Positions 432-64,000 of a stretch of DNA of 64,000 nt are shown piece after piece. Under the pieces are notes generated by a model that was not told the origin of the DNA, searched no databases, and saw only the letters and a list, made by a program, of their open reading frames with translations. Numbering within the stretch: position 1 is the stretch's first letter; every line of letters starts with the position of its first letter. The position numbers and the translations under genes are program-made. Origin of the DNA: Hemiscyllium ocellatum (taxonomy: Eukaryota); assembly GCF_020745735.1 (NCBI RefSeq), contig NC_083418.1:49617776-49681775 (forward strand), read 5' to 3'.

Positions 432-726
432 TTAGATTACTTACAGTGTGGAAACAAGCCCTTCGGCCCAACAAGTCCACACCGACCCACTGAAGAGCAA
501 CCCACCCAGACCCATTTCCCTACATTTACCCATTCACCTAACACTACGGGCAATTTAGCATGGCCAATTCACCTAACCTACACATCTTTGAATTGTGGGA
601 GGAAACCCACACAGACACACAGAGAATGTGCAAATTCCACACAGACGGTTGCCCGAAGTGGGAATTGAACCCAGGTCTCTGACACTGTGAGGCAGCAGTG
701 CTAACCACTGTGCCACTGTGCCACCC
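432..726 (-). mobile_element. HE1-type tRNA-derived shark SINE
   Basis: Reverse complement reads GGGTGGCACAGTGGCACAGTGGTTAGCACTGCTGCCTCACAG...GGTTCAATTCC (tRNA-like A/B boxes), a TTGGCCATGCTAAATTGCCC core and a CR1-like tail ending ACTGTAAGTAATCTAA. Confidence 0.9.
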
Positions 727-739
727 ACTTTCCCTTACT

Positions 740-2480
740 GTATCCTCCCTTCCCATTTGAAGTAATTTTGCTTCTAATCAGTAGGCTCCTCCACAGCCTC
801 TGTCATTTTTCTGTCTGTTCTGTAAGCTTATAACCCAGAATATTTTGTTCCCATCCTGACCATCACACAGGAGGAGAAAGTGAGGTCTGCAGATGCTGGA
901 GATCAGAGCTGAAAATGTGTTGCTGGAAAAGCGCAGCAGGTCAGGCAGCATCCAAGGAACAAGAAATTCGATGTTTCGGGCATAAGCCCTTCTTCAGGAA
1001 TGAGAAAAGTGTGTCCACCAGGCTAAGATAAAAGGTAGGGAGGAGGGACTTGGTGGAGGGCGATGGAGATGTGATAGGTGGAAGGAGGTCAAGGTGAGGG
1101 TGATAGGCCGGAGTGGGGTGGGGGGGTGAAGAGGTCAGGAAGAAGATTGCAGGTTAGGAAGGCGGTGCTGAGTTCGAGGGATTCAACTGAGACAAGGTGG
1201 GGGAGGGGAAATGTGGAAACTGGAGAAATCTGAGTTCATCCCTTGTGGTTGGAGGGTTCCCAGGTGGAAGGTGAGGCCTCATCTTCCGCTTGGGAACCCT
1301 CCAACCACAAGGGATGAACTTAGATTTCTCCAGTTTCCTCATTTCCCCTCCCCCACCTTGTCTCAGTTGAATCCCTCGAACTCAGCACCGCCTTCCTAAC
1401 CTGCAATCTTCTTCCTGACCTCTTCGCCCCACCACCCCACTCCGGCCTATCACCCTCACCTTGACCTCCTTCCACCTATCACATCTCCATCGCCCTCCAC
1501 CAAGTCCCTCCTCCCTACCTTTTATCTTAGCCTGCTGGACACACTTTCCTCATTCCTGAAGAAGGGCTTATGCCCGAAACATCGAATTTCTTGTTCCTTG
1601 GATGCTGCCTGACCATCACACAGCCATGTCTCAGTCATGACCATTACATCATAACTACAGTTTGTATCTGTGCCTGCAGCTTGTTTAACTTATTCCTTAT
1701 TCTCAGTGTATTCAGATAATAAACTCTGATTTGGACCAAACCCTATAGCCTGTCCCTCAGCACTGATGCTTAAGTCACCTATTTATTATTTCAGTCTAAT
1801 GCAATTTAATGAGGAAACATCTTATAATATTGCCATTCGCTCTCATGCCTGAATTAGGATTCCTGACAGTTTCTTGGCTCTCTGTCATGTTCCTTGAATT
1901 AGAAACAGTAATAACTTCTTCCAAGCACACTGAATATTTTGAAATACCCATGACTACCCTATTTAGCCTTTCAGATAAGGCATTGATCCCAGGTTGGTTC
2001 AGGTACAGTCCATTCCAGTATTACAGGTCTTTTCTGTCCCAATACTGGGGTTAGTGCCCCATGAAATGAAATCCTTCTTTCCTCTGTCACTCCTTTAACC
2101 ATGTGTTTACTTCCATAATTTTCTTATGTCTACGTCAATTCGGACGTGGCATGGTTAATAATCCAGAAATTGTAACGCTTGAGGTTCAGTTTTTTTAATT
2201 TGCTCTGAATACCTGATATTCCCCAAACAGGAACCAGTGCCTGTGTTGGTCTCAACATGGACTACAACAACTGGATCCTCCTTGTCTCGTTCCAATATCC
2301 TTTCAAGCTGCTTTAAGATGTCTCTCACCTTGGCACCAGGCAGGCAACACACCAAGCGCAACTTTGCATCTTGCTGACAATGGATGCTATGCCCTTACTA
2401 TACAGCACACTACTATTATCACTTCTTGCTCCCCCTACTTGAGTAGCCTCTTGTACCATGGTGCAGTGGTCAGTTTGTCC
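740..2480 (-). mobile_element. Degraded CR1 LINE (ORF1 esterase and endonuclease N-terminal remnants), interrupted by a Penelope insert
   Basis: ORF 2155..2361(-) RLVCCLPGAKVRDI...DPVVVVHVETN is the CR1 ORF1 SGNH-esterase-like motif. Endonuclease-type sequence continues across the 871-1607 insertion. Confidence 0.75.
871..1607. mobile_element. Penelope-like element (PLE) fold-back insertion, ~680-bp palindrome centred at 1276/1277
   Basis: Arms ~937-1276 and 1277-~1613 are reverse complements (mirror ORFs 1154..1342- and 1211..1399+). Flanked by the direct repeat CCTGACCATCACACAG at 855-870 and 1608-1623. PLE terminus GGAGAAAGTGAGGTCTGCAGATGCTGG at 873. Confidence 0.9.
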
Positions 2481-3068
2481 ATCAGTTGGACCCTCTAGCA
2501 GCAGGTGATGGAGAGCACTGACCAACGGAACTGAGCACTTTGTTGTGAAATGCTCCACCAGCAGGTCATGACAGTGAGGGACGTGAGGTGGAGCAGTTAA
2601 ATGGAGTCTCACTGGGGAAAAAAAGACAAGGGGTCTTTGGTAAAAGTAGGAGAAGAGAGGCAAAAGCTCTCCTCAGCTCAAAATTATTCCACAGACATCC
2701 TTCCATGTAAATGCCATATATAGTTTCTTGCATATCCTTAATTATTTTCATGTTTGTAATTAACTGATACCTGTGGAATAAAGAACTCTGCTTCACCACC
2801 TTTCGGTCATCAGTAAATTCAAATTTCATATTACTTATGGTCATCTGCCTTACTAATGTCATGTATTAATTGGTGTCAAATGATGATTACCATTTCCCCT
2901 TGTAAAGTACCTTGGCTCATTTTACGGCTTTAAAGTGGTGTATTAATGGAAGTTGTTGCATTTTCTTCACAAGTGGTATTTCATTAGCTAACAGCACGAT
3001 TACTGGTCCTCCTTCTCCAGTCTGAGGTTTACACTGTTGACACTGTTATTTACTTTGCATGAATATAG

Positions 3069-3197
3069 AAACAGAGGAAATCCGCACAGACAAAGACAGC
3101 CATGAGGACAGGACAATGCAGGTCACTGATCGCAGAACCCAAGATCAGTTGCAAGATGAACATAACCAGGAAGCTGAAGGTGGAATTAATCAAGAAG
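3069..3197 (+). CDS. Internal coding exon R1 (129 nt, phase 1-1) of an unidentified acidic-repeat protein
   Basis: tag|AA ACA GAG...CAA GAA G|gtaata. Open frame (E)TEEIRTDKDSHEDRTMQVTDRRTQDQLQDEHNQEAEGGINQE. Six copies keep length, frame and splice sites. Confidence 0.72.
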
Positions 3198-3522
3198 GTA
3201 ATAACCTCAGGATGGTTTTTAAAAAAATTGTCATATAATTTTGAGATACAGGAAAGGAGTACAGTAACATGACTCTATTTAAAACTGTAAGGGGAAGGTA
3301 GAAAATAGCCTGGGAGAGATACTTGAACTGAAAATTATTTTAAATTTATATAGCAAATGTCTCTCAGATCTACTTATGTGCAGTATTTAAGATGTTCGAG
3401 ATTTTCAACTTTCCAAGAATATCTTTGATGAATGCAACTTGAAATTCAATGGCGTTTTATTGTTTGCATTTCCAACAGTTCATTCCAAGTCTCCCCCAAA
3501 TTACTTGCCTAGCACACTGACA

Positions 3523-6050
3523 CTCATAGAGTTACGGAGCTGTATAGCATGGAAACAGTTTGTTTGGTCCAATTCACCCATGCTCACCAGATTTCCTGAA
3601 TTATTCTCATCCCATTTGCCAGCACTTGGCCCATGTCCCTCCTAACCCTTCCTATTCATATACCCGTCCAGATGCCTTTTAAATGGTTGTAATTGTACCA
3701 GCCTCCACCACCTCCTCTACCAGCTCATTCCATACACTTACCACTCTCTGCGTGAACAAGTTGACTCTTAGGTCCTTTTTAAATCATTTCACCTTAATCT
3801 GATGCCCTCAAGTTTAGGATCCCTCCAACCCAGGAAAAAAGATCTTGGCTTTGCACTCTATCCATGCCACTCATGAGTTTATAAACCTTTAGAAGGTTAC
3901 CTCTCACCCTCCGACACTCCAGGGAAAATAGCCCCAGCCTCTACACCCTTTCCCTTTTGCTAAAAAGCCTCCAACCCCAACAACATCCTTATAAATCTTT
4001 TCTTAACCCTTACAAGTTTCACAAAATACTTCCCATACAAGAGGTAGATCAGACTTGAATGCAATATTCCAAAGGTGATCTCAAAAATACAGCTAAAGCA
4101 TGACCTCCCAACTCCTGTACTATGTACTGACCATAAAGGCAAGCATACCAAATGCCTTCTTCACTATCCTGTCTTGTATGATTCCACTTTCAGGGAACTA
4201 TGAATCTGTGATTCCAAGGTCTGTTTGTTCAGCAATGCTCCTCAGGACCTTGCCATTAAGTGTAGAGGTCCTGCCCTGATTTGCCTTATCAAAATGTAGC
4301 ATTGCGCATTTGTCTGAATTACATTCCATCTGCCACTCCTTGGCCCATTGGCCTATCTGATCAATGTTCTATTGTACTATGAGGTAACCTTCTTCGCTGT
4401 CCACTACACCTTCAATTTTGGTGTCATCTGCAAACTTACTAACCATACTTCCTGTGTTCAGATGCAAATAATTTTAAAAATAACGAAAAGTAGTGGACCC
4501 AGCATTAACTCTTGTGGTACACCGCTGATCACAGGCCTACAGTCTGAAACGCAACCCTCCACCACCACTTTCTATCTTCAGTTGTCAAGCCAGTTCTGTA
4601 TCCAAATGGCTAGTTCTCCCTGTATTCCATGTCATCTAATCCTGCTAATCATTCTACCATGAGGAACCTTGTCAAGCGCCTAATTGAAATCCATATAGAT
4701 CACGTGCACCACCGTCATCAATCCTCTTTGTTACTTCTTCAGAAAATTGCATCAAATTAGGGAGATATGATTTTCCATGCACAAAGCCATGTTGACTATC
4801 CCTAATCAATCTTTGCCTTTCCGAATACATGTAAGTCCTGTCCCTCAGGTTTCCCTCCAACACCTTGCCTACCACCAATGTCAGGCTCAATGCCAATAGC
4901 TCCATGGCTTCTCCTGACCACCTTTCTTAAATAGTGGCACCAGGTTTGTCAACCTCCTGTCTTCTGTCACCTCACTTGTGACTATCGATGATACAAATAT
5001 CTCAGCAAGGGACCCTGCAATCACTTCCATAGCTTCCCACAGAATTCTCGGGTACACCTGACCAGGTTTGGGGATTTATTCACCTTTGTGCGTTTTAAGA
5101 TGTCTAGCACCACCTCCTCTGTATTATGGACATTTTTCAAGAATTTTCAATATTTATAGCCCCATTTTCTCTTTCATATCCTTCTCCACAGTAAAAGACT
5201 CATTTAGTATCTCCCTCATCTCTTGCAGTTCCAGACATAGCTGGCCTTGCTGATTTTTCAGGGGCCATGTTGTCTCCCTAGTTACTCTTTCATATTTTAT
5301 GGAATCCCTTTGGATTCTCCTTAACCCGATTTGCCAAAGCTGTCTCATGTCCCCGCTTTCCCCTCCGCGTTTCCTCTCATAAGTTTTCTCTCCTGCCTTT
5401 ATAATCTTTAAGAGATTTGGTAGATCTCTGCTGTCAATGCTTGACACATGCTTCCTTCTTATTCTTGACCAAGACCTCAATTTCTCTCATCATCCAATAT
5501 TCCCTACACCTACTGGTCTTGCCTTTCACCCGAACAGGAACGTGACTCTCCTACACTACCTATCTTCCTCTCCTACCTTGCTTGGAGGAAACCCATCCAC
5601 CTGACTGTATCTTCGGTTTTTCTCTCATCCTCCAGTGGTCATCATTTCATCCTCCAGCTCCGATAAATTCCTTACTGCCTCAAACTGCTGCACCAACCAA
5701 TCCATGCAATGCAATAGGACTTGCGACCATGCACACTAACTGTAGACATACTCATCAGTAACATGGAACCTCTCCCTAATCTCCCACATCCAACAGGAAG
5801 GGCACATCACTCCACTGAAGGCCATTTGTGCACCTCAACAATCTTCAGACGCAGAAAAATAGCTGAATCATACTGCTCTAAAAAAACACTGCTCCAGGAT
5901 AACCTCTTACCTATTTTCATTATTTTAAAACTTTAATAACATAAAATCAAAACAGAACTCACTCTACTCAGTAATGTAGATTTACATAAACAAACAGTAA
6001 GGTTACACTTTCAAGAGCCACTTAGCTGCTTCCCTGCTGTGAGCTCCCCC
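3523..6050 (-). mobile_element. Degraded, internally deleted CR1 LINE (3' tail, RT, ORF1 and 5' remnants)
   Basis: Minus-strand ORFs ...VVGKVLEGNLRDR...IRDSQHGFVHGKS... and WPLKNQQGQLCLE are CR1 ORF2 motifs. CR1 3' tail starts CTCATAGAG at 3523. Confidence 0.9.
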
Positions 6051-6299
6051 ACATAGGTCTATACCAAATGGGGTTTAGCTTTCCAATCTAATTCCCCACC
6101 CACTCCCAGCACTGACACTTTAGATCCTTTTAAGCAGATTAGCTACAACTGCTTGATTCCAAATGGCCTGAGCTCCATAAGCACTTTGTGAATGATATTA
6201 TTGACATCATGGTTTTGATGGAATCCCGACTGAGGATGACAGCTTCCCGTTAATGAAGCCTCTCAAACTGTCGATGTTCTCCACTGCCATCTGGTGGCA

Positions 6300-8050
6300 G
6301 TGTAGTCCTTGTCGTATCTAACTCTGGCAGGTTCACCACTTGTAAATATCATTTTCCACCCCACTCAATTCTTATTTAAAATCCCCTTTCTATGGTTTCC
6401 AATTTTCGAACATACCATATTTCTCAAGGACATCATGATTATTTTCTTCCCTCAATTTCTCCCTTGAGCAACTTCTCCTCTTTGGTGATTTGAACTATTA
6501 TTTCAAATTATTATGGTCTCTCCCTTTTCTGAGTTCACCGCCGATCTACACTCACACTTTCGCCTTCATATAAACTACTCTAACACACATCCACCCTTAC
6601 CGTCGCTACTCCCATCTTCTCAGCTGTAAATAATGCCATCACTGATCATTTCCTTGTATCATTCTCAACTCACAATCCCTCTTTCAACCTTACTGTGTCT
6701 ATCTCAAGTCACTTGCAGTGATGTTATCAAATTCCCACTGCTTAGCTTTTGACCATCTATTCATCATGACATTTCTGAACGTGCAGATCTTCTCAGCCAT
6801 ACCCACAGCTCGAGGTGAGATGTCTTTGGCTGGATTGAAACCAACTATGCCCCATTTGTAACATGCCTCTTACCTCAGTTTCTTTAATTCGTAGGCCTGA
6901 TGGACACTTGGTTTAACAATTCACTACCTGGTGTGGTTGGACCATACAGAGCACTAGGTGATCCTGCTTTCTCTTGCACTGTGTAGACTGCATTTTAGGT
7001 ACATCCTAAAATTCAAAGATAACCTGTGGGTTCCTGTCACTGCAAAATGTCTGTTTAAACCATCACCCCCTTCTTCATTTTCACCTCCAGAAACATGTGC
7101 AAGACTTTCATAGTTATCTTTGGCATGGAGGTTGAGTCACAAGGATTTCCAGTGTGATTGTGACAAGGGTAAACAATCTCTCTTCCCTGATTTGCCGGCT
7201 GCCTTTGTCAGGATTGGACACACTATCTCCCTGTGCTCGCTCACACAACTGTGTGGGACTGAGGTCACTTGGTTTCATTTATGTCTGTCCATTTGTAGCC
7301 AGGGAGTCACCTACTTCTTCATGCTCCTATACTGTTATCTCTGGAGTTTCCCAAGGATCTATCATTATCCTCCTCCAGTTGTTTTTGTCTACAGCAACTT
7401 CATGCAAGAACTACTTTTACCGCTTTGTCACATTGATTGGTCAATACTAGAGGAGCAGAAATTTGCCCCAACTAAATATTGAGAAGTTTTGATTCCCTAG
7501 ACATCACCTCCAATCCTCTCTCTGATAACTGTCTCAAGCCGACATCAAGATAAGCTTTCCAAACATGCACTTCATCACCAAGGCTACCAACCTCTATATC
7601 TGAAACATTGTCCAAATCTTTCTCTATGTCAATTTGTTTGCTGCTAAAACACTCATCCATGCTTTTGTCACTCGTAGGGGTTGACTATTCTCTTGTACTT
7701 TCATCCAGCTTCCCATCTTCCACCCTCTTGAAATGTAAGCTCATATAAAATCTGAACCAGTCCATAACTCATACCAATGTCTGTTTGCCCATTACCCCAT
7801 TGCTTACTTTTGGCTGCAGGCCTGGTAATTTTCAAACCTGTTTCCACTTCCTCCCATTGTGACAATGCACCCTGTATTGTAAGCTCTCTCTGTCCGTTTT
7901 AGAGCTCCACCTTCTATCCATCTTGGAATCTTGCAAAACCTAGGAAATTGTTCTACCACTGATGGTTGTACCTTCAGTTGCCTAGATTCTAAGGTCGAAT
8001 ATTTTTGACATATTTCTCTCTGCCTCTACCTAACTCTTAAAATCCTTCTT
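6300..8050 (+). mobile_element. Old L2-clade LINE fragment (RT region)
   Basis: DCDKGKQSLFPDLPAAF..GHTI and TVISGVSQGSII correspond to the L2 motifs DCDKG..LLDLSAAFDTVDH and VTSGVPQGSILG. Confidence 0.7.
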
Positions 8051-20037: not shown

Positions 20038-20332
20038 TTAGATTACTTACAGTGTGGAAACAAGCCCTTCGGCCCAACAAGTCCACACCGACCCACTGAA
20101 GAGCAACCCACCCAGACCCATTTCCCTACATTTACCCATTCACCTAACACTATGGGCAATTTAGCATGGCCAATTCACCTAACCTACACATCTTTGAATT
20201 GTGGGAGGAAACCCACACAGACACACAGAGAATGTGCAAATTCCACACAGACGGTTGCCCGAAGTGGGAATTGAACCCAGGTCTCTGACACTGTGAGGCA
20301 GCAGTGCTAACCACTGTGCCACTGTGCCACCC
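20038..20332 (-). mobile_element. HE1-type SINE (duplicate of 432-726)
   Basis: Within duplication copy B; one substitution seen relative to copy A. Confidence 0.9.
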
Positions 20333-20476
20333 ACTTTCCCTTACTGTATCCTCCCTTCCCATTTGAAGTAATTTTGCTTCTAATCAGTAGGCTCCTCCAC
20401 AGCCTCTGTCATTTTTCTGTCTGTTCTGTAAGCTTATAACCCAGAATATTTTGTTCCCATCCTGACCATCACACAG

Positions 20477-21213
20477 GAGGAGAAAGTGAGGTCTGCAGAT
20501 GCTGGAGATCAGAGCTGAAAATGTGTTGCTGGAAAAGCGCAGCAGGTCAGGCAGCATCCAAGGAACAAGAAATTCGATGTTTCGGGCATAAGCCCTTCTT
20601 CAGGAATGAGAAAAGTGTGTCCACCAGGCTAAGATAAAAGGTAGGGAGGAGGGACTTGGTGGAGGGCGATGGAGATGTGATAGGTGGAAGGAGGTCAAGG
20701 TGAGGGTGATAGGCCGGAGTGGGGTGGGGGGGTGAAGAGGTCAGGAAGAAGATTGCAGGTTAGGAAGGCGGTGCTGAGTTCGAGGGATTCAACTGAGACA
20801 AGGTGGGGGAGGGGAAATGAGGAAACTGGAGAAATCTGAGTTCATCCCTTGTGGTTGGAGGGTTCCCAGGTGGAAGGTGAGGCCTCATCTTCCGCTTGGG
20901 AACCCTCCAACCACAAGGGATGAACTTAGATTTCTCCAGTTTCCTCATTTCCCCTCCCCCACCTTGTCTCAGTTGAATCCCTCGAACTCAGCACCGCCTT
21001 CCTAACCTGCAATCTTCTTCCTGACCTCTTCGCCCCACCACCCCACTCCGGCCTATCACCCTCACCTTGACCTCCTTCCACCTATCACATCTCCATCGCC
21101 CTCCACCAAGTCCCTCCTCCCTACCTTTTATCTTAGCCTGCTGGACACACTTTCCTCATTCCTGAAGAAGGGCTTATGCCCGAAACATCGAATTTCTTGT
21201 TCCTTGGATGCTG
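20477..21213. mobile_element. Penelope fold-back palindrome (duplicate of 871-1607), centre 20882/20883
   Basis: Mirror ORFs 20760..20948- and 20817..21005+; same TSD. Confidence 0.9.
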
Positions 21214-22682
21214 CCTGACCATCACACAGCCATGTCTCAGTCATGACCATTACATCATAACTACAGTTTGTATCTGTGCCTGCAGCTTGTTTAACTTATT
21301 CCTTATTCTCAGTGTATTCAGATAATAAACTCTGATTTGGACCAAACCCTATAGCCTGTCCCTCAGCACTGATGCTTAAGTCACCTATTTATTATTTCAG
21401 TCTAATGCAATTTAATGAGGAAACATCTTATAATATTGCCATTCGCTCTCATGCCTGAATTAGGATTCCTGACAGTTTCTTGGCTCTCTGTCATGTTCCT
21501 TGAATTAGAAACAGTAATAACTTCTTCCAAGCACACTGAATATTTTGAAATACCCATGACTACCCTATTTAGCCTTTCAGATAAGGCATTGATCCCAGGT
21601 TGGTTCAGGTACAGTCCATTCCAGTATTACAGGTCTTTTCTGTCCCAATACTGGGGTTAGTGCCCCATGAAATGAAATCCTTCTTTCCTCTGTCACTCCT
21701 TTAACCATGTGTTTACTTCCATCATTTTCTTATGTCTACGTCAATTCGGACATGGCATGGTTAATAATCCAGAAATTGTAACACTTGAGGTTCAGTTTTT
21801 TTAATTTGCTCTGAATACCTGATATTCCCCAAACAGGAACCAGTGCCTGTGTTGGTCTCAACATGGACTACAACAACTGGATCCTCCTTGTCTCGTTCCA
21901 ATATCCTTTCAAGCTGCTTTAAGATGTCTCTCACCTTGGCACCAGGCAGGCAACACACCAAGCGCAACTTTGCATCTTGCTGACAATGGATGCTATGTGT
22001 ATCCCTTACTATACAGCACACTACTATTATCACTTCTTCTTGCTCCCCCTACTTGAGTAGCTTCTTGTACCATGGTGCAGTGGTCAGTTTGTCCATCAGT
22101 TGGACCCTCTAGCAGCAGGTGATGGAGAGCACTGACCAACGGAACTGAGCACTTTGTTGTGAAATGCTCCACCAGCAGGTCATGACAGTGAGGGACGTGA
22201 GGTGGAGCAGTTAAATGGAGTCTCACTGGGGAAAAAAAGACAAGGGGTCTTTGGTAAAAGTAGGAGAAGAGAGGCAAAAGCTCTCCTCAGCTCAAAATTA
22301 TTCCACAGACATCCTTCCATGTAAATGCCATATATAGTTTCTTGCATATCCTTAATTATTTTCATGTTTGTAATTAACTGACACCTGTGGAATAAAGAAC
22401 TCTGCTTCACCACCTTTCGGTCATCAGTAAATTCAAATTTCATATTACTTATGGTCATCTGCCTTACTAATGTCATGTATTAATTGGTGTCAAATGATGA
22501 TTACCATTTCCCCTTGTAAAGTACCTTGGCTCATTTTACTGCTTTAAAGTGGTGTATTAATGGAAGTTGTTGCATTTTCTTCACAAGTGGTATTTCATTA
22601 GCTAACAGCACGATTACTGGTCCTCCTTCTCCAGTCTGAGGTTTACACTGTTGACACTGTTATTTACTTTGCATGAATATAG

Positions 22683-22811
22683 AAACAGAGGAAATCCACA
22701 CAGACAAAGACAGCCATGAGGACAGGACAATGCAGGTCACTGATCGCAGAACCCAAGATCAGTTGCAAGATGAACATAACCAGGAAGCTGAAGATGGAAT
22801 TAATCAAGAAG
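22683..22811 (+). CDS. Internal coding exon R4 (129 nt, phase 1-1; recent copy of R1)
   Basis: tag|AA ACA GAG...GAA G|gtaata. (E)TEEIHTDKDSHEDRTMQVTDRRTQDQLQDEHNQEAEDGINQE. Confidence 0.72.
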
Positions 22812-23136
22812 GTAATAACCTCAGGATAGTTTTTTTAAAAATTGTCATATAATTTTGAGATACAGGAAAGGAGTACAGTAACATGACTCTATTTAAAACT
22901 GTAAGGGGAAGGTAGAAAATAGTCTGGGAGAGATACTTGAACTGAAAATTATTTTAAATTTATATAGCGAATGTCTCTCAGATCTACTTGTGTGCAGTAT
23001 TTAAGATGTTCGAGATTTTCAACTTTCCAAGAATATCTTTGATGAATGCAACTTGAAATTCAATGGCGTTTTATTGTTTGCATTTCCAACAGTTCATTCC
23101 AAGTCTCCCCCAAATTACTTGCCTAGCACACCGACA

Positions 23137-25665
23137 CTCATAGAGTTACGGAGCTGTGTAGCATGGAAACAGTTTGTTTGGTCCAATTCACCCATCCTCA
23201 CCAGATTTCCTGAATTATTCTCATCCCATTTGCCAGCACTTGGCCCATGTCCCTCCTAACCCTTCCTATTCGTATACCCGTCCAGATGCCTTTTAAATGG
23301 TTGTAATTGTACCAGCTTCCACCACCTCCTCTACCAGCTCATTCCATACACTTACCACTCTCTGCGTGAACAAGTTGACTCTTAGGTCCTTTTTAAATCA
23401 TTTCACCTTAATCTGATGCCCTCAAGTTTAGGATCCCTCCAACCCAGGAAAAAAGATCTTGGCTTTGCACTCTATCCATGCCACTCATGAGTTTATAAAC
23501 CTTTAGAAGGTTACCTCTCACCCTCCGACACTCCAGGGAAAATAGCCCCAGCCTCTACACCCTTTCCCTTTTGCTAAAAAGCCTCCAACCCCAACAACAT
23601 CCTTATAAATCTTTTCTTAACCCTTACAAGTTTCACAAAATACTTCCCATACAAGAGGTAGATCAGATTTGAATGCAATATCCCAAAGGTGATCTCAAAA
23701 ATACAGCTAAAGCATGACCTCCCAACTCCTGTACTATGTACTGACCATAAAGGCAAGCATACCAAATGCCTTCTTCACTATCCTGTCTTGTATGATTCCA
23801 CTTTCAGGGAACTATGAATCTGTGATTCCAAGGTCTGTTTGTTCAGCAATGCTCCTCAGGACCTTGCCATTAAGTGTAGAGGTCCTGCCCTGATTTGCCT
23901 TATCAAAATGTAGCATTGCGCATTTGTCTGAATTACATTCCATCTGCCACTCCTTGGCCCATTGGCCTATCTGATCAATGTTCTATTGTACTATGACGTA
24001 ACCTTCTTCGCTGTCCACTACACCTTCAATTTTGGTGTCATCTGCAAACTTACTAACCATACTCCCTGTGTTCAGATGCAAATAATTTTAAAAATAACGA
24101 AAAGTAGCGGACCCAGCATTAACTCTTGTGGTACACCGCTGATCACATGCCTACAGTCTGAAACGCAACCCTCCACCACCACTTTCTATCTTCAGTTGTC
24201 AAGCCAGTTCTGTATCCAAATGGCTAGTTCTCCCTGTATTCCATGTCATCTAATTCTGCTAATCATTCTACCATGATGAACCTTGTCCATCACCTAATTG
24301 AAATCCATATAGATCACGTGCACCACTGTCATCAATCCTCTTTGTTACTTCTTCAGAAAATTGCATCAAATTAGGGAGATATGATTTTCCATGCACAAAG
24401 CCATGTTGACTATCCCTAATCAATCTTTGCCTTTCCAAATACATGTAAATCCTGTCCCTCAGGTTTCCCTCCAACACCTTGCCCACCACCAATGTCAGGC
24501 TCAATGCCAATAGCTCCATGGCTTCTCCTGACCACCTTTCTTAAATAGTGGCACCAGGTTTGCCAACCTCCTGTCTTCCGTCACCTCACTTGTGACTATC
24601 GATGATACAAATATCTCAGCAAGGGACCCTGCAATCACTTACATAGCTTCCCACAGAATTCTCGGGTACACCTGACCAGGTTTGGGGATTTATTCACCTT
24701 TGTGCGTTTTAAGATGTCTAGCACCACCTCCTCTGTATTATGGACATTTTTCAAGAATTTTCAATATTTATAGCCCCATTTTCTCTTTCATATCCTTCTC
24801 CACAGTAAAAGACTCATTTAGTATCTCCCTCATCTCTTGCAGTTCCAGACATAGCTGGCCTTGCTGATTTTTCAGGGGCCATGTTGTCTCCCTAGTTACT
24901 CTTTCATATTTTATGGAATCCCTTTGGATTCTCCTTAACCCGATTTGCCAAAGCTGTCTCATGTCCCCGCTTTCCCCTCCGCATTTCCTCTCATAAGTTT
25001 TCTCTCCTGCCTTTATAATCTTTAAGAGGTTTAGTAGATCTCTGCTGACTATGCTTGACACATGCTTCCTTCTTATTCTTGACCAAGACCTCAATTTCTC
25101 TCATCATCCAATATTCCCTACCCCTACTGGTCTTGCCTTTCACCCGAACAGGAACAGGACTCTCCTACACTACCTATCTTCCTCTCCTACCTTGCTTGGA
25201 GGAAACCCATCCACCTGACTGTATCTTCGGTTTTTCTCTCATCCTCCAGTGGTCATCATTTCAACCTCCAGCTCCGATAAATTCCTTACTGCCTCAAACT
25301 GCCGCACCAACCAATCCATGCAATGAAATAGGACTTGCGACCATGCACACTAACTGCAGACATACTCATCAGTAACATGGAACCTCTCCCTAATCTCCCA
25401 CATCCAACAGGAAGGGCACATCACTCCACTGAAGGCCATTTGTGCACCTCAACAATCCTCAGACCCAGAAAAATAGCTGAGTCATACTGCTCTAAAAAAA
25501 CACTGCTCCAGGATAACCTCTTACCTATTTTCATTATTTTAAAACTTTAATAACATAAAATCAAAACAGAACTCACTCTACTCAGTAATGTAGATTTACA
25601 TAAACAAACAGTAAGGTTACACTTTCAAGAGCCACTTAGCTGCTTCCCTGCTGTGAGCTCCCCCA
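23137..25665 (-). mobile_element. CR1 LINE (duplicate of 3523-6050)
   Basis: Within copy B; same motifs. Confidence 0.9.
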
Positions 25666-25899
25666 CATAGGTCTATACCAAATGGGGTTTAGCTTTCCAA
25701 TCTAATTCCCCACCCACTCCCAGCACTGACACTTTAGATCCTTTTAAGCAGATTAGCTACAACTGCTTGATTCCAAATGGCCTGAGCTCCATAAGCACTT
25801 TGTGAATGATATTATTGACATCATGGTTTTGATGGAATCCCGACTGAGGATGACAGCTTCCCGTTAATGAAGCCTCTCAAACTGTCGATGTTCTCCACT

Positions 25900-57231: not shown

Positions 57232-57754
57232 GTAAGAAGCTGGTCCGCATGTACTGAACTCTCCCTCCCCGCCGCTGGCACTGACAGGGAAAAATATCTT
57301 GGAAAAACTCGACTCAAAATGCAGTCCCGAGTCTCCCGAACTATTACAAGTTTCTAACAAACCCATAACTATTATGTTTTAAACAATTTTAGAATCTTTG
57401 TGTCTTTTGTGGGGGGTTGGATTTAGTTCCTGTAAATTATTACCGTGAGTGTCTTTTAGTTTCTAAGCATGTATTTTAGAAAATACAGCCACACCCATTA
57501 CCCAGGCCGAACGCATTTCTGATTAAAACAAATTGCGTTTAATTTTAGTTTGTTTAATTCTCTAATCCCGGAGTTCTTTAGCCTTTTAATACGTGTGTAC
57601 ATTTAACATGGACAAATAGAAAGATTAATTTCGATCAATTATAGAGTCCGATAGCATGGAAACAAACCCTTTAAATTCTGTATTTTGAGTTTCTTCAATT
57701 CCTTTTATTTCTAGTTCTGACAATTGAATGTCATTAATTACTCTCTTTATCTAG

Positions 57755-58087
57755 GAGCCTTGGATGTGACCATATTTCCAAACCAAACACGGGTCATCAT
57801 GAAAAAAGATTTTATCCTGAAATGCAAATTTACTGGTTATCATAACCTCAGCCGGACAAATGTTGGGGTCCAGTGGCTTGGACCCTTACAAAAGGAGATC
57901 TACACCTTTGATGCAGGCAAGCATGTTCCAAAGAGACAAGGAGTAAAGCTGTCTGAAGCTGACTTATTGAAAGGAGATGCTTCCCTTTTCCTTCCAAATG
58001 TACAGATTGATGATGAAGGGAAATACACTTGTATTGTATTTGTCACACCTGAGAAGGGTGAAAAGAGTTCACACCTGCTAGTTTTAG
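57755..58087 (+). CDS. NCR3LG1: NCR3LG1/B7-H6-like gene, IgV exon (333 nt, phase 1-1)
   Basis: ctctttatctag|GA GCC...TTA G|gtaaga. Canonical IgV C(LKC)-W(VQW)-C(YTC). KGDASLFLPNVQIDDEGKYTCIVFVTPEK matches human B7-H6 (recalled) [29 protein letters not shown]. Sequons NQT and NLS. No IgC exon found in the window. Confidence 0.88.
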
Positions 58088-58169
58088 GTAAGATACTTAA
58101 ATTGCTACCTGTTGTTGTGTTGGGAAATGCCAAGTTAGAAGTGTAAAGCAAAATGTTAATGATGGTGGT

Positions 58170-58349
58170 TCTTTGAAGTGGAGATTTAGCAGGATGATGC
58201 CAAGGCTGATGAGTTTTAGTTATGAAGATAGATTGAATAAACTGAGGTTGTTTTTCTTGGAGCAGAAGAGACTGGGTGGGGGAACATGATTGAGATGTAC
58301 AAAATTATGAGGACCAACTCAGGGTAGATGAGAAGAAACTTTCCCCCTT
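58170..58349 (+). mobile_element. CR1 3' fragment, left half (split by ERV; continues at 63688-63960)
   Basis: ...GAGAAGAAACTTTCCCCCTT joins GGTGAAGGAGTCAATGACC... after the ERV, restoring the CR1 sequence. Confidence 0.8.
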
Positions 58350-59060
58350 TGTTGTGAGTACAACACCACAAATTACCTTTAATTCAGCTACTTAGTAAGA
58401 AATCTCTGAGACAATCAGGTACTGAAACAATGTTTTAAACTTTATTGCAAAAGATCCCTCAGCTAAGCAAGTTAAACCTCACTATTCAACTTGGCTATTG
58501 TCCGATTAACGGTGGAACTTGGTCATGATTGCACAGTGTCTGTCTCTGGAAGTGTCCAGGGTTCAATCCTTATGCTGTGTTCTTCTTCAAAGTTCTGCTG
58601 AAGGGGGTGGTCTGGTGTTCGATTCTTAGACAGAGTTTCATCCCATGCATGATAATATTAATATTTTTAAGTCATCTTATCCAACTTACTGCAAGTCTGC
58701 AGCTTGCTTCCTGAACAGAAATAGCTTCATTGCTCCTTGTTACATTTAGCCTTAACTGTTTATTTGAAGTCACAACTCTCCCACAGTTAACTCTTAAAAT
58801 TCTTCTGCGGGGCAATCAGTTGTCCTTGTGGCATAATGCAGTCAGTTATCCAGCAGATTTCAAAGCCGTTTTGTTCATGTGGTTTCACTCCCTCTTTTCC
58901 CAGGAATAGCTAATTGTTTTCAATTCCTATATACTTCTGCCATTTTCTTTCATAGTTTATTCCAGAGTTATTGCTGCTGCTTTCTGTGTCTAACAGTTTG
59001 TTTTATTGATTGCTTCATTCCAGGAATAGTTATTAAAGTTCTGACCTTTATGATATCACA
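58350..59060 (-). repeat. 3' LTR of the ERV
   Basis: Homologous to 62962-63687 (about 70-75% by eye). Minus-strand start TGTGATATC. Confidence 0.9.
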
Positions 59061-59075
59061 GTCCCTCCTCTATTT
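59061..59075 (-). other. Polypurine tract
   Basis: Minus strand AAATAGAGGAGGGAC directly abuts the 3' LTR. Confidence 0.85.
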
Positions 59076-59199
59076 ATTATTTTTAATATGATGAACAAAC
59101 AGAAGTTGGCCATTTCCCAACATATTGGTTCATATCCAAGCTGATTTGCTATATCATGCACAATTTAAAAATGTACCATTTCATTATGCAGTGTAGATA

Positions 59200-60900
59200 C
59201 ATGTAAACCAATAATCAATTAATGAATTACAAAATAATGATCAGTAAATGAATTGCAAGAGGAGTAAGCATGCACAAAGAAATAAAATTACACAAAACAA
59301 AAATAAAACTGCTTTATGCATCACCCATTGCAGCTTACCATTGTCATGTCTTCACAGGACTACAACAAAATGTGAAATAATATGAACCCACACCGCTATT
59401 CCAAATGTTATCCCACCAAGAGTGTTTCTTAAGGTTTTTAATATCTGTCCTGATTCTCTGACTATTTGGCTGCACCTTATCCGGTAATTTGTGTGCCTTT
59501 CTGAAAATCCCTTTTATTTCTTTCATATTTCCCTTAGAGAAAGGTGACATTATATCTCATATTTTTGTCAGTAGGGCCGAACCATTTCTCTAGCTGAATC
59601 AGTCACATCAAACATCACACTTTCTCTTTCTGATGTTCACCAATACCATTGTTCCTATCCACTTGAGCATTTGCGGGTAAATGTAAAGTGTTGAATCTGT
59701 GATGGGACAAGTTGTGATAATGATATTCCTTTAAAGATGTTGTGATATAATACTCTCGGTTGCATTTCCAGCTCTGATTATGTTGTCTCAAGCGATGCTT
59801 GAAATTTTGCAAGTACAGTTAATTTTTCATTTTCACTGGACTCAAAACCACATGTGGCTTGTCCAGTTCTATAGATTGGATAAGGACGAACAATAGCTTT
59901 ATCAGTCTGTTGGCATTCATTATGTGCTGTGCCTACGAGTCTTTTTCTACCACATAAGGTGTAGATTCTCCATAACTGTCATCCAGATGGTGATTTGGAT
60001 CCCTCCAATATTTTGTACTGTTGTAGCATTTAATGGTTTGTCATTCTTAGATATAACAGGTATCCCTAACTCAAGACTTATTCTGTTCCCTCCCATACAC
60101 GAATCATTATTCCATACTATTGTTAATCTCCTTAGCTCACAGATAGAGATTTTACTTAATGTTCCTATCCCATCAGCTAATTTCCTTAATTTAGTGTTGT
60201 CAGCCTATGTAAGAACTTCTGTCAGTTTAATTTGATTTACATTTTCTCTCTATTGATTGAACATCCAATTGCTGTATATACTACACAAAATTACATTTAT
60301 TTGATGTTGACCGCTCTTTCCTGCTTCCTTATTAGTTTGTTAATTGCGCTGGTGAGTGATTCTAAAATGTCACCAATATGAAATGTATCACTGTTCATGG
60401 TGTCCCCCGCCTGACTGCTAACTTTAGTGTTATCATTCACCACACCCAGTATACCTTTTTAACTTGAGAAATTAATTGATTTAATTGATCACTTATAACT
60501 CTCATGTCCAGACCATTAAATGTCTGCAAGCATCTTCTATCAAACTTTTGCACTTGCTGTTTTTTTCCTTGGATTGTGTAACCTTCTTGATTAAACAACC
60601 TCTTGACCAATCCACTATAAATGTCAGGTAAAGGTATTGGACATCAAGATGGTACCTGAATACCTAAGAGATTTAGAATAACTGGTACTAATTCATAATG
60701 GCATTTTCATAGCACACTTTGCACATACTTTACATAACCATCTGGCCTCTGGGTCCTGCTTTTCTTACAGGACATAATCCAAGGTTTTTGGCCATTTCCG
60801 ATGTTAGGGCAAGTGTGATCTGAAGTTCTTTGTAAATCGTCAGCACAAATGAATTTGACTTTCATATCGCATATAAAATTAACGGAACTGTGGGCAGAGG
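59200..60900 (-). pseudogene. env-like glycoprotein remnant
   Basis: Frame-broken pieces: HYELVPVILNLLGIQVPS*CP; NGLDMRVISDQLNQLISQVKK (heptad-like); NWMFNQ.RENVNQIK; SLELGIPVISK..VQNIGG; CGF; HSWWDNIWN; hydrophobic VLFLFCVILFLCACLLLLQFIY just before the PPT. Confidence 0.65.
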
Positions 60901-61180
60901 CATCTTCCCATGCTGTCGTCTGCACATTATTGGTGTTTGGTTACGTGTACACACCATGTCCACTTGTACTCAGCACTGGATCCTGACTGCTGACTCCATA
61001 TTTCACTTGCAAAGGCCCAGCAATTCCAAAATCAGCTTCGTAATTTATCTAAAGCTCAAAAACAAAACAGCAAGGTAGTTTCTGCTCTTATTTACAATTT
61101 CTCAGTTCACACAGATCCTGAAGTTGAATTTTGTTCTTCAAATATTTGTACTCGTCACTATTGTTTCTTGTGAAATAGAA

Positions 61181-61530
61181 GGTATGGTGGCTCATTGATT
61201 AGTACTGCTGCTCACAGCACCAGGTATCTGGGTTTGATTCCAGCCTCGGGTGGCTGTCTGTGTGGAGTTTGCACATTATCCGCATCTCTGTGTGTGTTCC
61301 CTCTGAATGCTCTGGTTTCTTTCCATAATCCAAAAATGTGCAGGTTTGGTGAATTGTCCATGCTAAATTGCCCATAGTGCTCAGGGATGTGTAGGATAGG
61401 TGCATTTGTCAGGGGATATATAAAGTACTAGGGAAGGGGCATGGGTCTGGGTGGGTTACATTTCAAGGATTGGTGTGGACCTTTTGGGCTAAATGGCCTT
61501 TTTCTACACTGTAGGGATTGTATAAAATTC
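61181..61530 (+). mobile_element. HE1-type SINE nested in the ERV
   Basis: GGTGGCTCATTGATTAGTACTGCTGCTCACAG...GGTTTGATTCC...CATGCTAAATTGCCC. Confidence 0.88.
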
Positions 61531-61599
61531 TATTTAAAAAGTCTATGCAGACACTTTGACCAATTATTATGCTCTCACTCTCCTCTCTAGAGTTCATCA

Positions 61600-62727
61600 C
61601 AGGGATATGGGAAGCAATTGGGTTTGGGATCCACTTTCACTAAATTCCTGTTCCAGTTCCTCTAAGTCGAAAGTGTATCAGAAAAGCTTGTCACACCTCT
61701 CTCCACATCACTCCAGGAAATAGATATTCACTCTTTCGTGGCTGACTCTAGAGTTTTCCTCCACCCTTAACTAACCTAACTTAAAATTTTACTGTTCCTT
61801 TGTCTCACTTTTCAAAACAGCTGGTTTGTGCCAAGTTACTGGTCAACTGCCTATTTTCTCGTTTATGCTGTTGGATCTTTACTTTGGGTTTGTACCAGAC
61901 TGGTATAGGTGGATGCAGTAAACGTTTACCAAGTATGATGGAGGGGCGCCTGGGTCAGGATTATAATTGTATTCCTTACCCTGAACTAAATAACATGCAG
62001 CTTCACCCTTAACCAATCCCAAATCAGAATAGTCCCTTTCATTCCCAAGTCCTTATATGGGTTCCAAAGCACAAAGAAGACCTCTCTGGCTGGATAACTA
62101 TGGCTTCAAGGCATCAATCTCCAGTTGGCATTTTAAATGATCACATTCTGTACTTGTTGTTCAAGCTGTGCTTGGTGAAGGACTTCAAGTGCTGCCTGGA
62201 GATCTTTACATTTACTTTCCAGTTCCTGATTCTTAATTTCTCACTCCTGAATTTATCTCTGTCTTCTCAGTATTTCTGTTCATGTCTCCAATTGACTTTG
62301 ATTATTTGAGATGTAAACTATCTTCTTCTTACTGGCAGTCTCTATGGATTTTAACCTTTGCCTTTAATTCTATGTTTTCCAACTTGAAGATAACCCTTTT
62401 ATGACTGAAACTGCTCGGGCATCAAGATTCTGTTTTAGTTCTGCATTTTCTGACTATAATTCTTCAATTTCTGACTTCAACTCCCTTATCTCAACATTTC
62501 TCTGCTTTAACACATATTTCATATACCAACTTTCTTCAAAAAGACAACAATTTCCTGTCAGCCCATCCTGTTTGGGTGTGTTTCCCCACAGACTTCCTGA
62601 TTTACAAATAATCCAGTGCCCTTGGATTTGTAATATCCCAAGATTCCAAACACTCTTATCACTTTGGAAATTTCTTATTCAAATATTCTTTAATCAAGCT
62701 CTCCCATTCAGATTGACTGTTTGCCAT
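61600..62727 (-). pseudogene. gag-like remnant with long coiled coil
   Basis: ATG 62727 MANSQSEWESLIKEYLNKKFPK; ..KQRNVEIRELKSEIEEL*SENAELKQNL..; ..NQELESKCKDLQAALEVLHQAQLEQQ. Many stops. Confidence 0.6.
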
Positions 62728-62940
62728 GATTTCAAAGCTAAGTTCAAAAGCTCAACTCAGTAATGTAAAAGCTTAAGTGTTCCAATTAAATCTGAAAATT
62801 TGTTGCGTCTGTCCTCATCCACCCAATTGGATTCTGGCCATCACGTGAGGCCTCTGCCCTCTCAATCCAGGTCAGGCAGGACTTCTGACAATACAGGATG
62901 GTAGGTTCAACTTTGGAGCAACTTAGTCACTTCTTATCAA

Positions 62941-62959
62941 AGCCTTCCCAGGGACACCA
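62941..62959 (-). other. Primer-binding site, tRNA-Asn-like
   Basis: TGGTGTCCCTGGGAAGGCT versus the complement of the vertebrate tRNA-Asn 3' end (recalled) TGGCGTCCCTGGGTGGGCT, 16/19; 2 nt after the LTR CA. Confidence 0.78.
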
Positions 62960-62961
62960 AC

Positions 62962-63687
62962 TGCTGTGGGTAAATCACCATAAGTTACCTTTAATTTGGT
63001 AACTTATTAAGAAATCTCCCAGATAACCAAGTACTGAAGCAATGATTTAAACTTTATTGCATGTAGCAGACAAAATAAGATCCCTCAAGTAAGCAAGTTA
63101 AGCCTCACAACCCAACTTGGCTGTTACCAAATTTATGGTGGAACCGGACCATGATTCCACATGTATTTCTCTGGAAGTGTCTAAGCTTTGATCCTTGTGC
63201 CATGCCCTTCTCCAAAGTTCTGGTAAAGTGGGAGTTCTGGTGTTCAATTCTTAGACAGAGTTTCATCCTTCAAGTCTATGTGTGATGTTATTAATAATTT
63301 TTAAAAGTCCTTTCTAAATTGTTGCAAGCCTGCAGCTCGCCTTCTTATCAGAAGGAGCTTATTTGTTCCTTGAGTGTCTGTTTGAAGACACAGCTTTCCT
63401 GCAGTTAAACCCCTAAATTCTTTTGCAGGGCAATCACTTATCCTTGTGGCATTAAGTAGCCAGTTCTCAAGCAGATGTCAAAGCAATTTTATTCATGTAG
63501 TTTCAACTCCCTCTTTTCCCAGACCTGGCTAATTGTTTTCAATTCCTGCATAAAGTTTGTGCTGGTCTTTGATAGTTTATTCCAGACTATTAAAGAGTTA
63601 TTGCTGCTTTCCATGTTGAACAGTTTGTTTTGTTGATTTGTTCAATCAATGAGCAGTTATCAAAGTTGTAGAATTCATAATATCACA
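62962..63687 (-). repeat. 5' LTR of the ERV
   Basis: Minus-strand TGTGATATT...CCCACAGCA, homologous to 58350-59060. Confidence 0.9.
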
Positions 63688-63960
63688 TCTTGGTGAAGGA
63701 GTCAATGACCGGGGGTATAGACTTAAAAAGTATGTCAGGTCTTTTTGTAACCAGAGGTGGAAATCAGGAACTATTTGCCTGTGAGAGTGGTAGATGCAGA
63801 AGTATAAGGAATATTTAGATGTGCACTTGTAATGCCAAGGTGTGCAAGGATAAGGTCGAATTGTTGGACAATGAGATTAGAATAGTAAGGTGGTTGTTTT
63901 TGACTGTCATAGACTTGATGTGCTATGGTTTCATTTCTGTGCTGTTCACCTCCGTAACTG
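63688..63960 (+). mobile_element. CR1 3' fragment, right half
   Basis: GGAGTCAATGACCGGGGGTATAGACTTAA...CCTGTGAGAGTGGTAGATGCAG, followed by a CR1 3' UTR. Confidence 0.78.
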
Positions 63961-64000
63961 TTTCTCCTGACTGATAAGTCTAAAACCAGGGGAAATAATC

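Follow-up and report, generated by a model that had tools for sequence, protein, structure and literature searches.

Do sharks carry lokiretroviruses? The question was raised by a 64,000-nucleotide stretch of the Hemiscyllium ocellatum genome (NC_083418.1, positions 49,617,776 to 49,681,775 of the forward strand), hereafter the window, in which a provirus lies on the minus strand at 58350-63687; all coordinates of the element given here are positions in this window. A sequence-only reading of the stretch had proposed a lokiretrovirus-like element in a shark, citing a coiled-coil gag and an env of non-classical type. The element is a real, long-dead copy of a retrovirus without pol, lying antisense in a host intron, and its envelope protein (Env) is likely F-like. 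With middling confidence, we infer that it was left by a canonical retrovirus of snakehead/Ovex1 grade, having an F-like Env of the Ovex1/foamy rather than the loki type.

Proviral anatomy and target site

The features of the element and of its insertion site are as follows.

62962..63687, minus strand: 5' long terminal repeat (LTR), 726 nt, TG...CA
62942..62959, minus strand: primer binding site (PBS), likely for tRNA-Asn, beginning 2 nt past the 5' LTR
61520..62727, minus strand: gag remnant
61180..61513, plus strand: secondary insert resembling a short interspersed element (SINE), at the gag/env boundary
59230..61170, minus strand: env remnant, in pieces across three frames
59061..59071, minus strand: polypurine tract (PPT) and spacer, with ten purines at 59071-59062
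58350..59060, minus strand: 3' LTR, 711 nt, TG...CA
58346..58349, plus strand: target site duplication (TSD), left copy, CCTT
63688..63691, plus strand: TSD, right copy, TCTT, matching at three of four bases
58177..58349, plus strand: CR1 3' remnant (the insertion target), left half
63688..63871, plus strand: CR1 3' remnant, right half, a weak match (E 0.19)
57754..58088, plus strand: host V-set immunoglobulin (Ig) exon, B7-family-like

Alignment of the two LTRs gave 140 mismatches in 691 aligned columns (20.3%), a Kimura two-parameter (K2P) distance of 0.24 and an identity of 73.9% when gaps are counted, so that the divergence of about 25% estimated earlier by eye was a fair one. Judged by its sequence, the PBS is likely of the Asn type: it agrees at 15 of 18 bases with that of the foamy genome L003/L153 of IMG/VR, the top match among 42 genomes scanned, and this genome is presumably that of a prosimian foamy virus to which two papers assign an Asn PBS. 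The ends of the proviral DNA, including the PPT spacer, read ACTG...CAGT. At the insertion site, a CR1 protein taken from another part of the window matched the left flank through residue 76 (residues 22-76; E 4e-8 and 0.002) and the right flank, weakly, from residue 77 onward, which indicates that the CR1 was split by the provirus. The LTR alignment, the PBS match and the flank search together bear out the anatomy that had been described from the letters alone, namely two LTRs, an Asn-like PBS, a PPT and a CCTT/TCTT duplication within a CR1.

The interior of the provirus measures 3.9 kb and is made up of ~1.2 kb of gag remnant, the SINE-like insert of 334 nt and ~2 kb of env remnant, with all reading frames full of stops. 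No trace of pol was detected in the element with 39 reference Pol proteins (tblastn; best E 0.11), and an Rfam scan returned a single chance match only. The description of the provirus as old and pol-deleted is thus upheld by the lack of a Pol match, the decayed frames and the diverged LTRs, and in its decayed state the element is unlikely to encode anything today. Over most of the element, the contigs of X5, a second individual of the species, showed no differences, in 8 pieces among the matches listed; one of these spans the junction at 63687, and the element is therefore not an assembly artefact.

The env remnant and its relatives

The env remnant amounts to ~650 codons, with 36-41 stops per frame, and less than 200 nt lie between its end and the PPT. 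In order, it consists of a Cys-rich N-part of ~230 codons, a basic KLKR at 60465, a helical region, a Cys-rich core, a membrane-proximal helix, WWD and transmembrane-like segments. The ending in WWD and a transmembrane helix that had been noticed earlier was recovered, with WWD at 59418 and hydrophobic 19-mers at 59414, 59333 and 59313. Neither a CX6CC nor an LQNR-type motif occurs in the three minus frames. A gamma Env profile built from 11 sequences gave no match above 3 bits in the window frames or their relatives, whereas its two controls, the Envs L146 and L163, came out at E ~5e-14, and the earlier failure to see a gamma-type immunosuppressive domain (ISD) or CX6CC is accordingly confirmed.

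When one env frame (stops as X) was searched with phmmer against 1.84 billion representatives, three matches were obtained: P0007 (E 1.4e-9), P0009 (E 1e-3) and P0008 (E 8e-9). P0008 is a repetitive DUF7507 protein with no back-alignment, and it was rejected as a chance match. P0009 (XP_067888393) is an uncharacterised protein of the horn shark, Heterodontus francisci, and resembles the C-terminal half of an Env. Returned to the window by tblastn, P0007 and P0009 scored 63 and 43 bits, where shuffled sequences reached no more than 22. P0007 (E 5e-17), P0009 (2e-10) and the env part of a further horn-shark protein, P0010 (8e-7), align in order along 60264-59355, and on this ground they were allowed to stand in for the env family, of which they cover the C-half of Env only.

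P0010 is one of a group of Heterodontus francisci FBXO15 models (P0010-P0014; XP_067888429-437), several isoforms of which end in a transmembrane-bearing env C-terminus that is 81% identical to P0009. This tail represents either exonisation of the env tail of an endogenous retrovirus (ERV) or read-through in the gene model. Word-seeded protein searches returned none of 372 candidates with the window env frame and, with P0009, horn-shark gene models only (1 of 853 longer, 2 of 1065 near). Searches of metagenome and viral contigs found neither loci related to P0009 nor a pol-bearing relative of the element, and among the metagenome loci listed for the LTR-end/PBS pattern, at least 119 in number, none resembled it. 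Pfam and PDB sequence searches of the env frames and relatives produced nothing meaningful, including no Pfam match to the F protein of Mononegavirales.

Fold of the envelope protein

The Atlas model of P0009, with a predicted local distance difference test (pLDDT) of 0.54, had as its top structure rows two chordate clusters of 874 aa, at template-modelling (TM) scores of 0.50 and 0.47, followed by Baculo_F clusters at 0.42 and 0.41. By features, it is near clusters of Baculo_F (0.88) and foamy Env (0.84); PF00523 is not among the rows shown. Judging by length, the 874-aa chordate clusters may be Ovex1, whose ORF3 is given as 873 and 874 aa, with 874 aa in zebra finch, in PMC2717909. With P0007 the Atlas gave no usable match. 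Foldseek of the AlphaFold models of P0009 against viral and PDB structures gave no match at E 0.001, and VIA returned only long helices.

Sequence comparisons were made with natural retroviral Envs from IMG/VR. P0009 and one foamy Env were found to be collinear over ~265 residues, at Z 10.3 in one run and 9.7 in another, in an alignment that starts with the post-heptad helix and extends as far as the membrane-proximal region, and 6 of the 17 foamy Envs reached Z>=3. A best match to gamma/epsilon-type transmembrane proteins, which the sequence-only reading had named in advance as the contrary outcome, was not obtained, none of the 11 gamma Envs scoring above Z 1.2. A foamy Env profile scored 4.1 bits with residues 62-178 of P0009, the Cys-rich core lying in register. 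The spacing from cleavage site to motif is ~80 residues in the window env and 80-82 in foamy Env, although a deletion may account for the value in the window. According to PMC11468914, foamy Env adopts the paramyxo/pneumo F fold and carries an inserted receptor domain ahead of its cleavage site. From the Atlas rows, the foamy alignment and the lack of gamma features, the non-classical, F-like type that had been proposed for env appears likely, and while all of the fold evidence is weak, we hold with considerable confidence that the Env of the element is F-like.

The gag remnant

The gag remnant carries 22-29 stops per frame and opens with a short N-terminal domain without Gly2. A charged helical segment was located at 62525-62219 and a PPSY late-domain-like motif at 61944; no CCHC motif or clear capsid is left in the decayed remnant. 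Pfam and PDB sequence searches of the gag frames gave no Pfam or profile match, a gamma Gag profile (9 sequences) gave no match above 3 bits, and a foamy Gag profile and three single foamy Gags found no signal. Over 27 tests, the helical segment scored best with the Gag coiled coil of L192 (Z 4.1), a genome which we take to be that of a snakehead-type retrovirus, with Z 1.2 or less for foamy Gags; a gag segment scored Z 3.1 with the Gag of L163. The best 28-residue window of the helical segment had a coiled-coil score of 21.5, the highest of 60 shuffles being 21.0, and heptad periodicity gave p values of 0.11 and 0.87. The coiled coil proposed earlier, a likely reading of the helical segment, is only modestly supported by this marginal score and these periodicities.

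Affinities of the parent retrovirus

The placement that we prefer, in the snakehead/Ovex1 grade, draws on both Gag and Env. Non-myristoylated Gags with an N-terminal coiled coil are described for Ovex1 and the snakehead retrovirus (SnRV) in PMC2717909, and the element shows the same combination in its lack of Gly2 and its match to the L192 Gag, with the coiled-coil score marginal. The snakehead retrovirus clade (PMC6001957) likewise shares the coiled-coil Gag. The L192 Env has no ISD and shows, by eye, N-x-x-LCS before G-x-LP and an LG-x-ML-x-LP strand like that of P0007. L192 differs from the element in its PBS, in an Env ORF of 1134 codons and in the absence of a significant Env score. Viewed by eye, this Env (L192 6131-9532) has an Ig-like front and an F-like C-half, and it gave no score against the foamy profile. 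SnRV-like ERVs have been described in a chimaera.

The bird Envs of Ovex1 ORF3, GGLTR11 and TERV are, like the window env, without CWLC, ISD and CX6CC (PMC2717909). By eye, the same motif order follows the basic site in Ovex1 and in the env family: MN...LE-x-x-TS; L-[SC]-[CS]-I...W; G-x-P; Y-x-GKG-x-x-C; and H-x-WW-[DE], ahead of the transmembrane segment. Four motifs derived from Ovex1 were present in order in the window or its relatives, at shuffle rates of 0.0005, 0.0135, 0.001 and 0.11. To the eye, Ovex1 ORF3 (PMC2717909, supplement 4) has its motifs and cysteines in the same order as an F-like fusion protein; whether it is an envelope was left uncertain in 2009. Ovex1 ORF3 has 430 residues before the cleavage site and 116 from there to G-x-P, against ~230 and ~80 in the window env. 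Ovex1 is also described as an intact, conserved bird locus without a PBS, whereas the element is decayed and has one.

From these remains it is possible to sketch how the parent retrovirus may have lived. With tRNA-Asn as the primer of reverse transcription, it would have lost 2 nt at each end of its DNA through trimming and made a 4-bp duplication on integration. An N-terminal coiled coil would have driven the assembly of its Gag, and a PPxY motif would have served in budding. Cleavage at a single basic site would have divided its Env into an N-part and an F1-like fusion subunit. By analogy with foamy Env, the Cys-rich insert of the N-part would probably have served in receptor binding. The present copy may have lost pol first and then been moved by a helper, or may have lost pol in place; the data fit either.

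Several points weigh against this placement. There is no reverse transcriptase (RT) in the element and its backbone is unplaced; a TSD of 4 bp is what ERV1 and foamy-like ERVs typically have, and not ERV3/ERV4; and one SnRV-like chimaera ERV differs in its PBS and has an env that looks gamma-type by eye. On the side of the fold, the Atlas TM scores are 0.5 or lower with a model pLDDT of 0.54 and the rows are 'under the bar', while AlphaFold models of P0009, made alone and with a 7-row, partly misaligned alignment, had pLDDT 38 and 44 and are no evidence either way. The foamy profile score of 4.1 bits compares with a shuffle maximum of 3.5 (300 shuffles), and hhalign against foamy, L192 and gamma Envs remained at noise level. 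The L192 Env scored Z -0.8 against P0009 and 2.1 against P0007, and the window env frames matched none of four foamy Envs or L192 (Z <=2.4). The Z of 4.1 for Gag came from a set of 27 tests and falls within a coiled coil, and an unrelated-looking match in the env set reached 4.4. Finally, the Ovex1 motifs were picked after both sequences had been viewed, so that they rank rivals and prove nothing, and Y-x-GKG-x-x-C is present in P0009 and not in the window copy.

Alternative origins

The alternative that survives best, though an unlikely one, is a class I (epsilon/gamma-like) backbone that gained an Ovex1-type F-like env by recombination. GGLTR11, which is filed as ERV1 and bears an Ovex1-type env, provides a precedent, and the 4-bp TSD typical of ERV1, the PPxY motif in gag and the Z of 3.1 with the L163 Gag are all in agreement with such an origin. 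The gag remnant, however, has neither Gly2 nor a CCHC motif, it was passed over by the nine-sequence gamma Gag profile, and its best score was with L192.

We consider it improbable that the element is a shark foamy-like ERV which lost pol and its accessory genes. Foamy viruses and foamy-like ERVs (PMC11468914, PMC5210030 and PMC5512871) share with it the F-like type of Env that it likely has, the weak collinear match and, in some, an Asn PBS, together with a 4-nt TSD; a foamy-like pol has been reported in a chimaera. The top sequence score of P0009 was indeed with a foamy Env, and the cleavage-to-motif spacing is that of foamy Env, unless it results from the deletion mentioned above. The same viruses differ in having an accessory region, a foamy Gag and an Env of 984-1034 codons, compared with ~650 in the element. 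There is no room for accessory genes between env and the PPT, although these could have been lost by deletion, and neither the foamy Gag profile nor the three single Gags gave a signal. The sequence GGGTG at the PPT/LTR border, common to the foamy viruses and the fish foamy-like ERVs of one study, is absent from the element, which reads GGGAC-TG at this point.

The lokiretrovirus in a cartilaginous fish, with which the question began, has become more doubtful still. Lokiretroviruses share the F-like Env scaffold that is likely here, with a cysteine order similar by eye, and some have an SMC-like coiled coil at the front of Gag (PMC7947760); a divergent loki branch would also be compatible with the lack of RT in the element. 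The loki hallmarks of an RT clade sister to other retroviruses, a dual RNase H (tether plus RH) and a CGIN1-like integrase fall within pol, which the element lacks, and its gag is too decayed to show a capsid of loki type, similar to those of MuLV and Ty3. Since an F-like Env and a coiled-coil Gag occur in foamy, Ovex1 and snakehead types as well, these features do not single out loki. The four published loki Envs are alike from lamprey to teleost (PMC7947760), and seven motifs were chosen from them, among them RXKR with an FLG fusion peptide, G-x-IP-x-YLV, NVG-x-W and KD-x-HW. None of the seven was found in the three window frames, P0009, the env part of P0010 or P0007, although decay may erase single motifs. 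The window env has no hydrophobic fusion peptide of loki type after its basic site, and it has WWD where the four loki Envs have no WW segment before the transmembrane segment. Loki-Bsp Env has 118 residues ahead of the cleavage site and then 125 to G-x-P, so that at ~230 residues the N-part of the element is twice as long, while its spacing of ~80 could have been shortened by deletion in this copy. The one loki PBS compared differs from that of the element, and a 2020 loki RT screen, in which six chondrichthyan genomes are listed, had none of three Orectolobiformes positive. Lokiretrovirus affinity is therefore not supported, and the finding of an F-like env plus a coiled-coil gag should be taken as a warning that these together do not identify a lokiretrovirus.

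An env-bearing, errantivirus-like Ty3/gypsy element with an F-type env is very unlikely, for although the top Atlas feature rows of P0009 are arthropod clusters, some with Baculo_F (0.88-0.90), chordate clusters rank above Baculo_F by structure, one survey recovered no intact homologues of invertebrate errantiviruses among vertebrate elements, and the PPxY motif and the WW segment with its transmembrane helix look retroviral.

Relation to known retroviral envelopes

Loki and foamy viruses are already known to have F-like Envs, and cartilaginous fish are known to harbour SnRV-like and foamy-like ERVs. We found no report of this env family or of an Ovex1-type Env in sharks, with the proviso that a 2023 paper in J Virol that deals with an endogenous foamy virus of cartilaginous fish may bear on it, and among the matches listed for lokiretroviruses no shark appears in titles or abstracts. 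A bolder reading, less likely than not, is that sharks carry an old, undescribed retrovirus family, the F-like Env of which is an aquatic relative of Ovex1 ORF3, bridging to foamy Env. If this is true, Ovex1 ORF3 would be an F-like fusogen, and an F-like Env would be ancestral to the loki, foamy, snakehead and Ovex1 lineages, with the gamma-type Env a later replacement. For the question of whether loki and other retroviral Envs arose once or separately, four scenarios are given in PMC7947760, and PMC9040795 favours independent Env gains. If sharks have a family whose Env is F-like, not of loki type and related to those of Ovex1 and foamy viruses, this would add a sample for an old and widespread F-like Env; the present copy is too decayed to settle the origin of Env, and its worth is as a probe for better copies.

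Age, orthologues and paralogues

The insertion is orthologous in a second species (X9, X10 and X13), in which pieces span the junction at 63687 and differences amount to 3-6%. One contig of 3.2 kb links the host exon, the 3' LTR and env and runs into the SINE, and from these orthologous contigs it follows that the provirus and its SINE predate the split of that species. Uncovered gag bins in X13 and pieces lacking in the second species were not taken as deletion. Given even rates, the insertion would be ~5-6 times older than this split. The age calculated from the K2P distance depends on the rate: 2.2e-9 gives 55 Myr and 1e-9 gives 120 Myr, while 2.2e-10, the rate assumed for a chimaera in PMC4422223, leads to 545 Myr, which is implausible.

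Paralogous copies of the element exist, as there are env pieces 17% diverged and a summed depth several-fold that of the unique flank, a depth which is not a copy number. The U5 end of the LTR (62900-63140, 58350-58420) was matched by far more contigs than the remaining LTR, and several longer contigs match only ~170 bases of it, which suggests a larger LTR family sharing this U5 end.

SINE insert, host exon and surroundings

The SINE-like insert, which was absent from the parts named in the sequence-only reading, has three further copies within the window, and its summed contig depth exceeds 1e6 against 45 for the unique flank. It resembles what we take to be the elasmobranch HE1/V-SINE.

The host V-set exon, likewise not named in that reading, matched Pfam V-set at E 7e-8, with CD276 (E 6e-10) and NCR3LG1 (E 3e-8) as its best PDB matches, and an X13 contig terminates at both of its edges. 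The provirus lies antisense in the intron behind this exon. Human NCR3LG1 carries a Gag-derived tail; as the provirus is antisense and intronic, the presence of an NCR3LG1-like exon beside it is likely to be coincidence. In X13, a run guessed to be RNA (window 58060-61270 and 63039-64000), the 3.2-kb contig from the end of the exon through the 3' LTR and env has a depth of ~20, compared with ~3 for the upstream intron and 61 for the exon contig. This pattern, from a single run, is a weak hint of read-through or intron retention.

Elsewhere in the window, near-identical ORFs and SINE copies at ~440-7500 and 20050-27100 repeat with an offset of ~19.6 kb, a pattern that suggests either a segmental duplication of recent date or a duplicate made in assembly.

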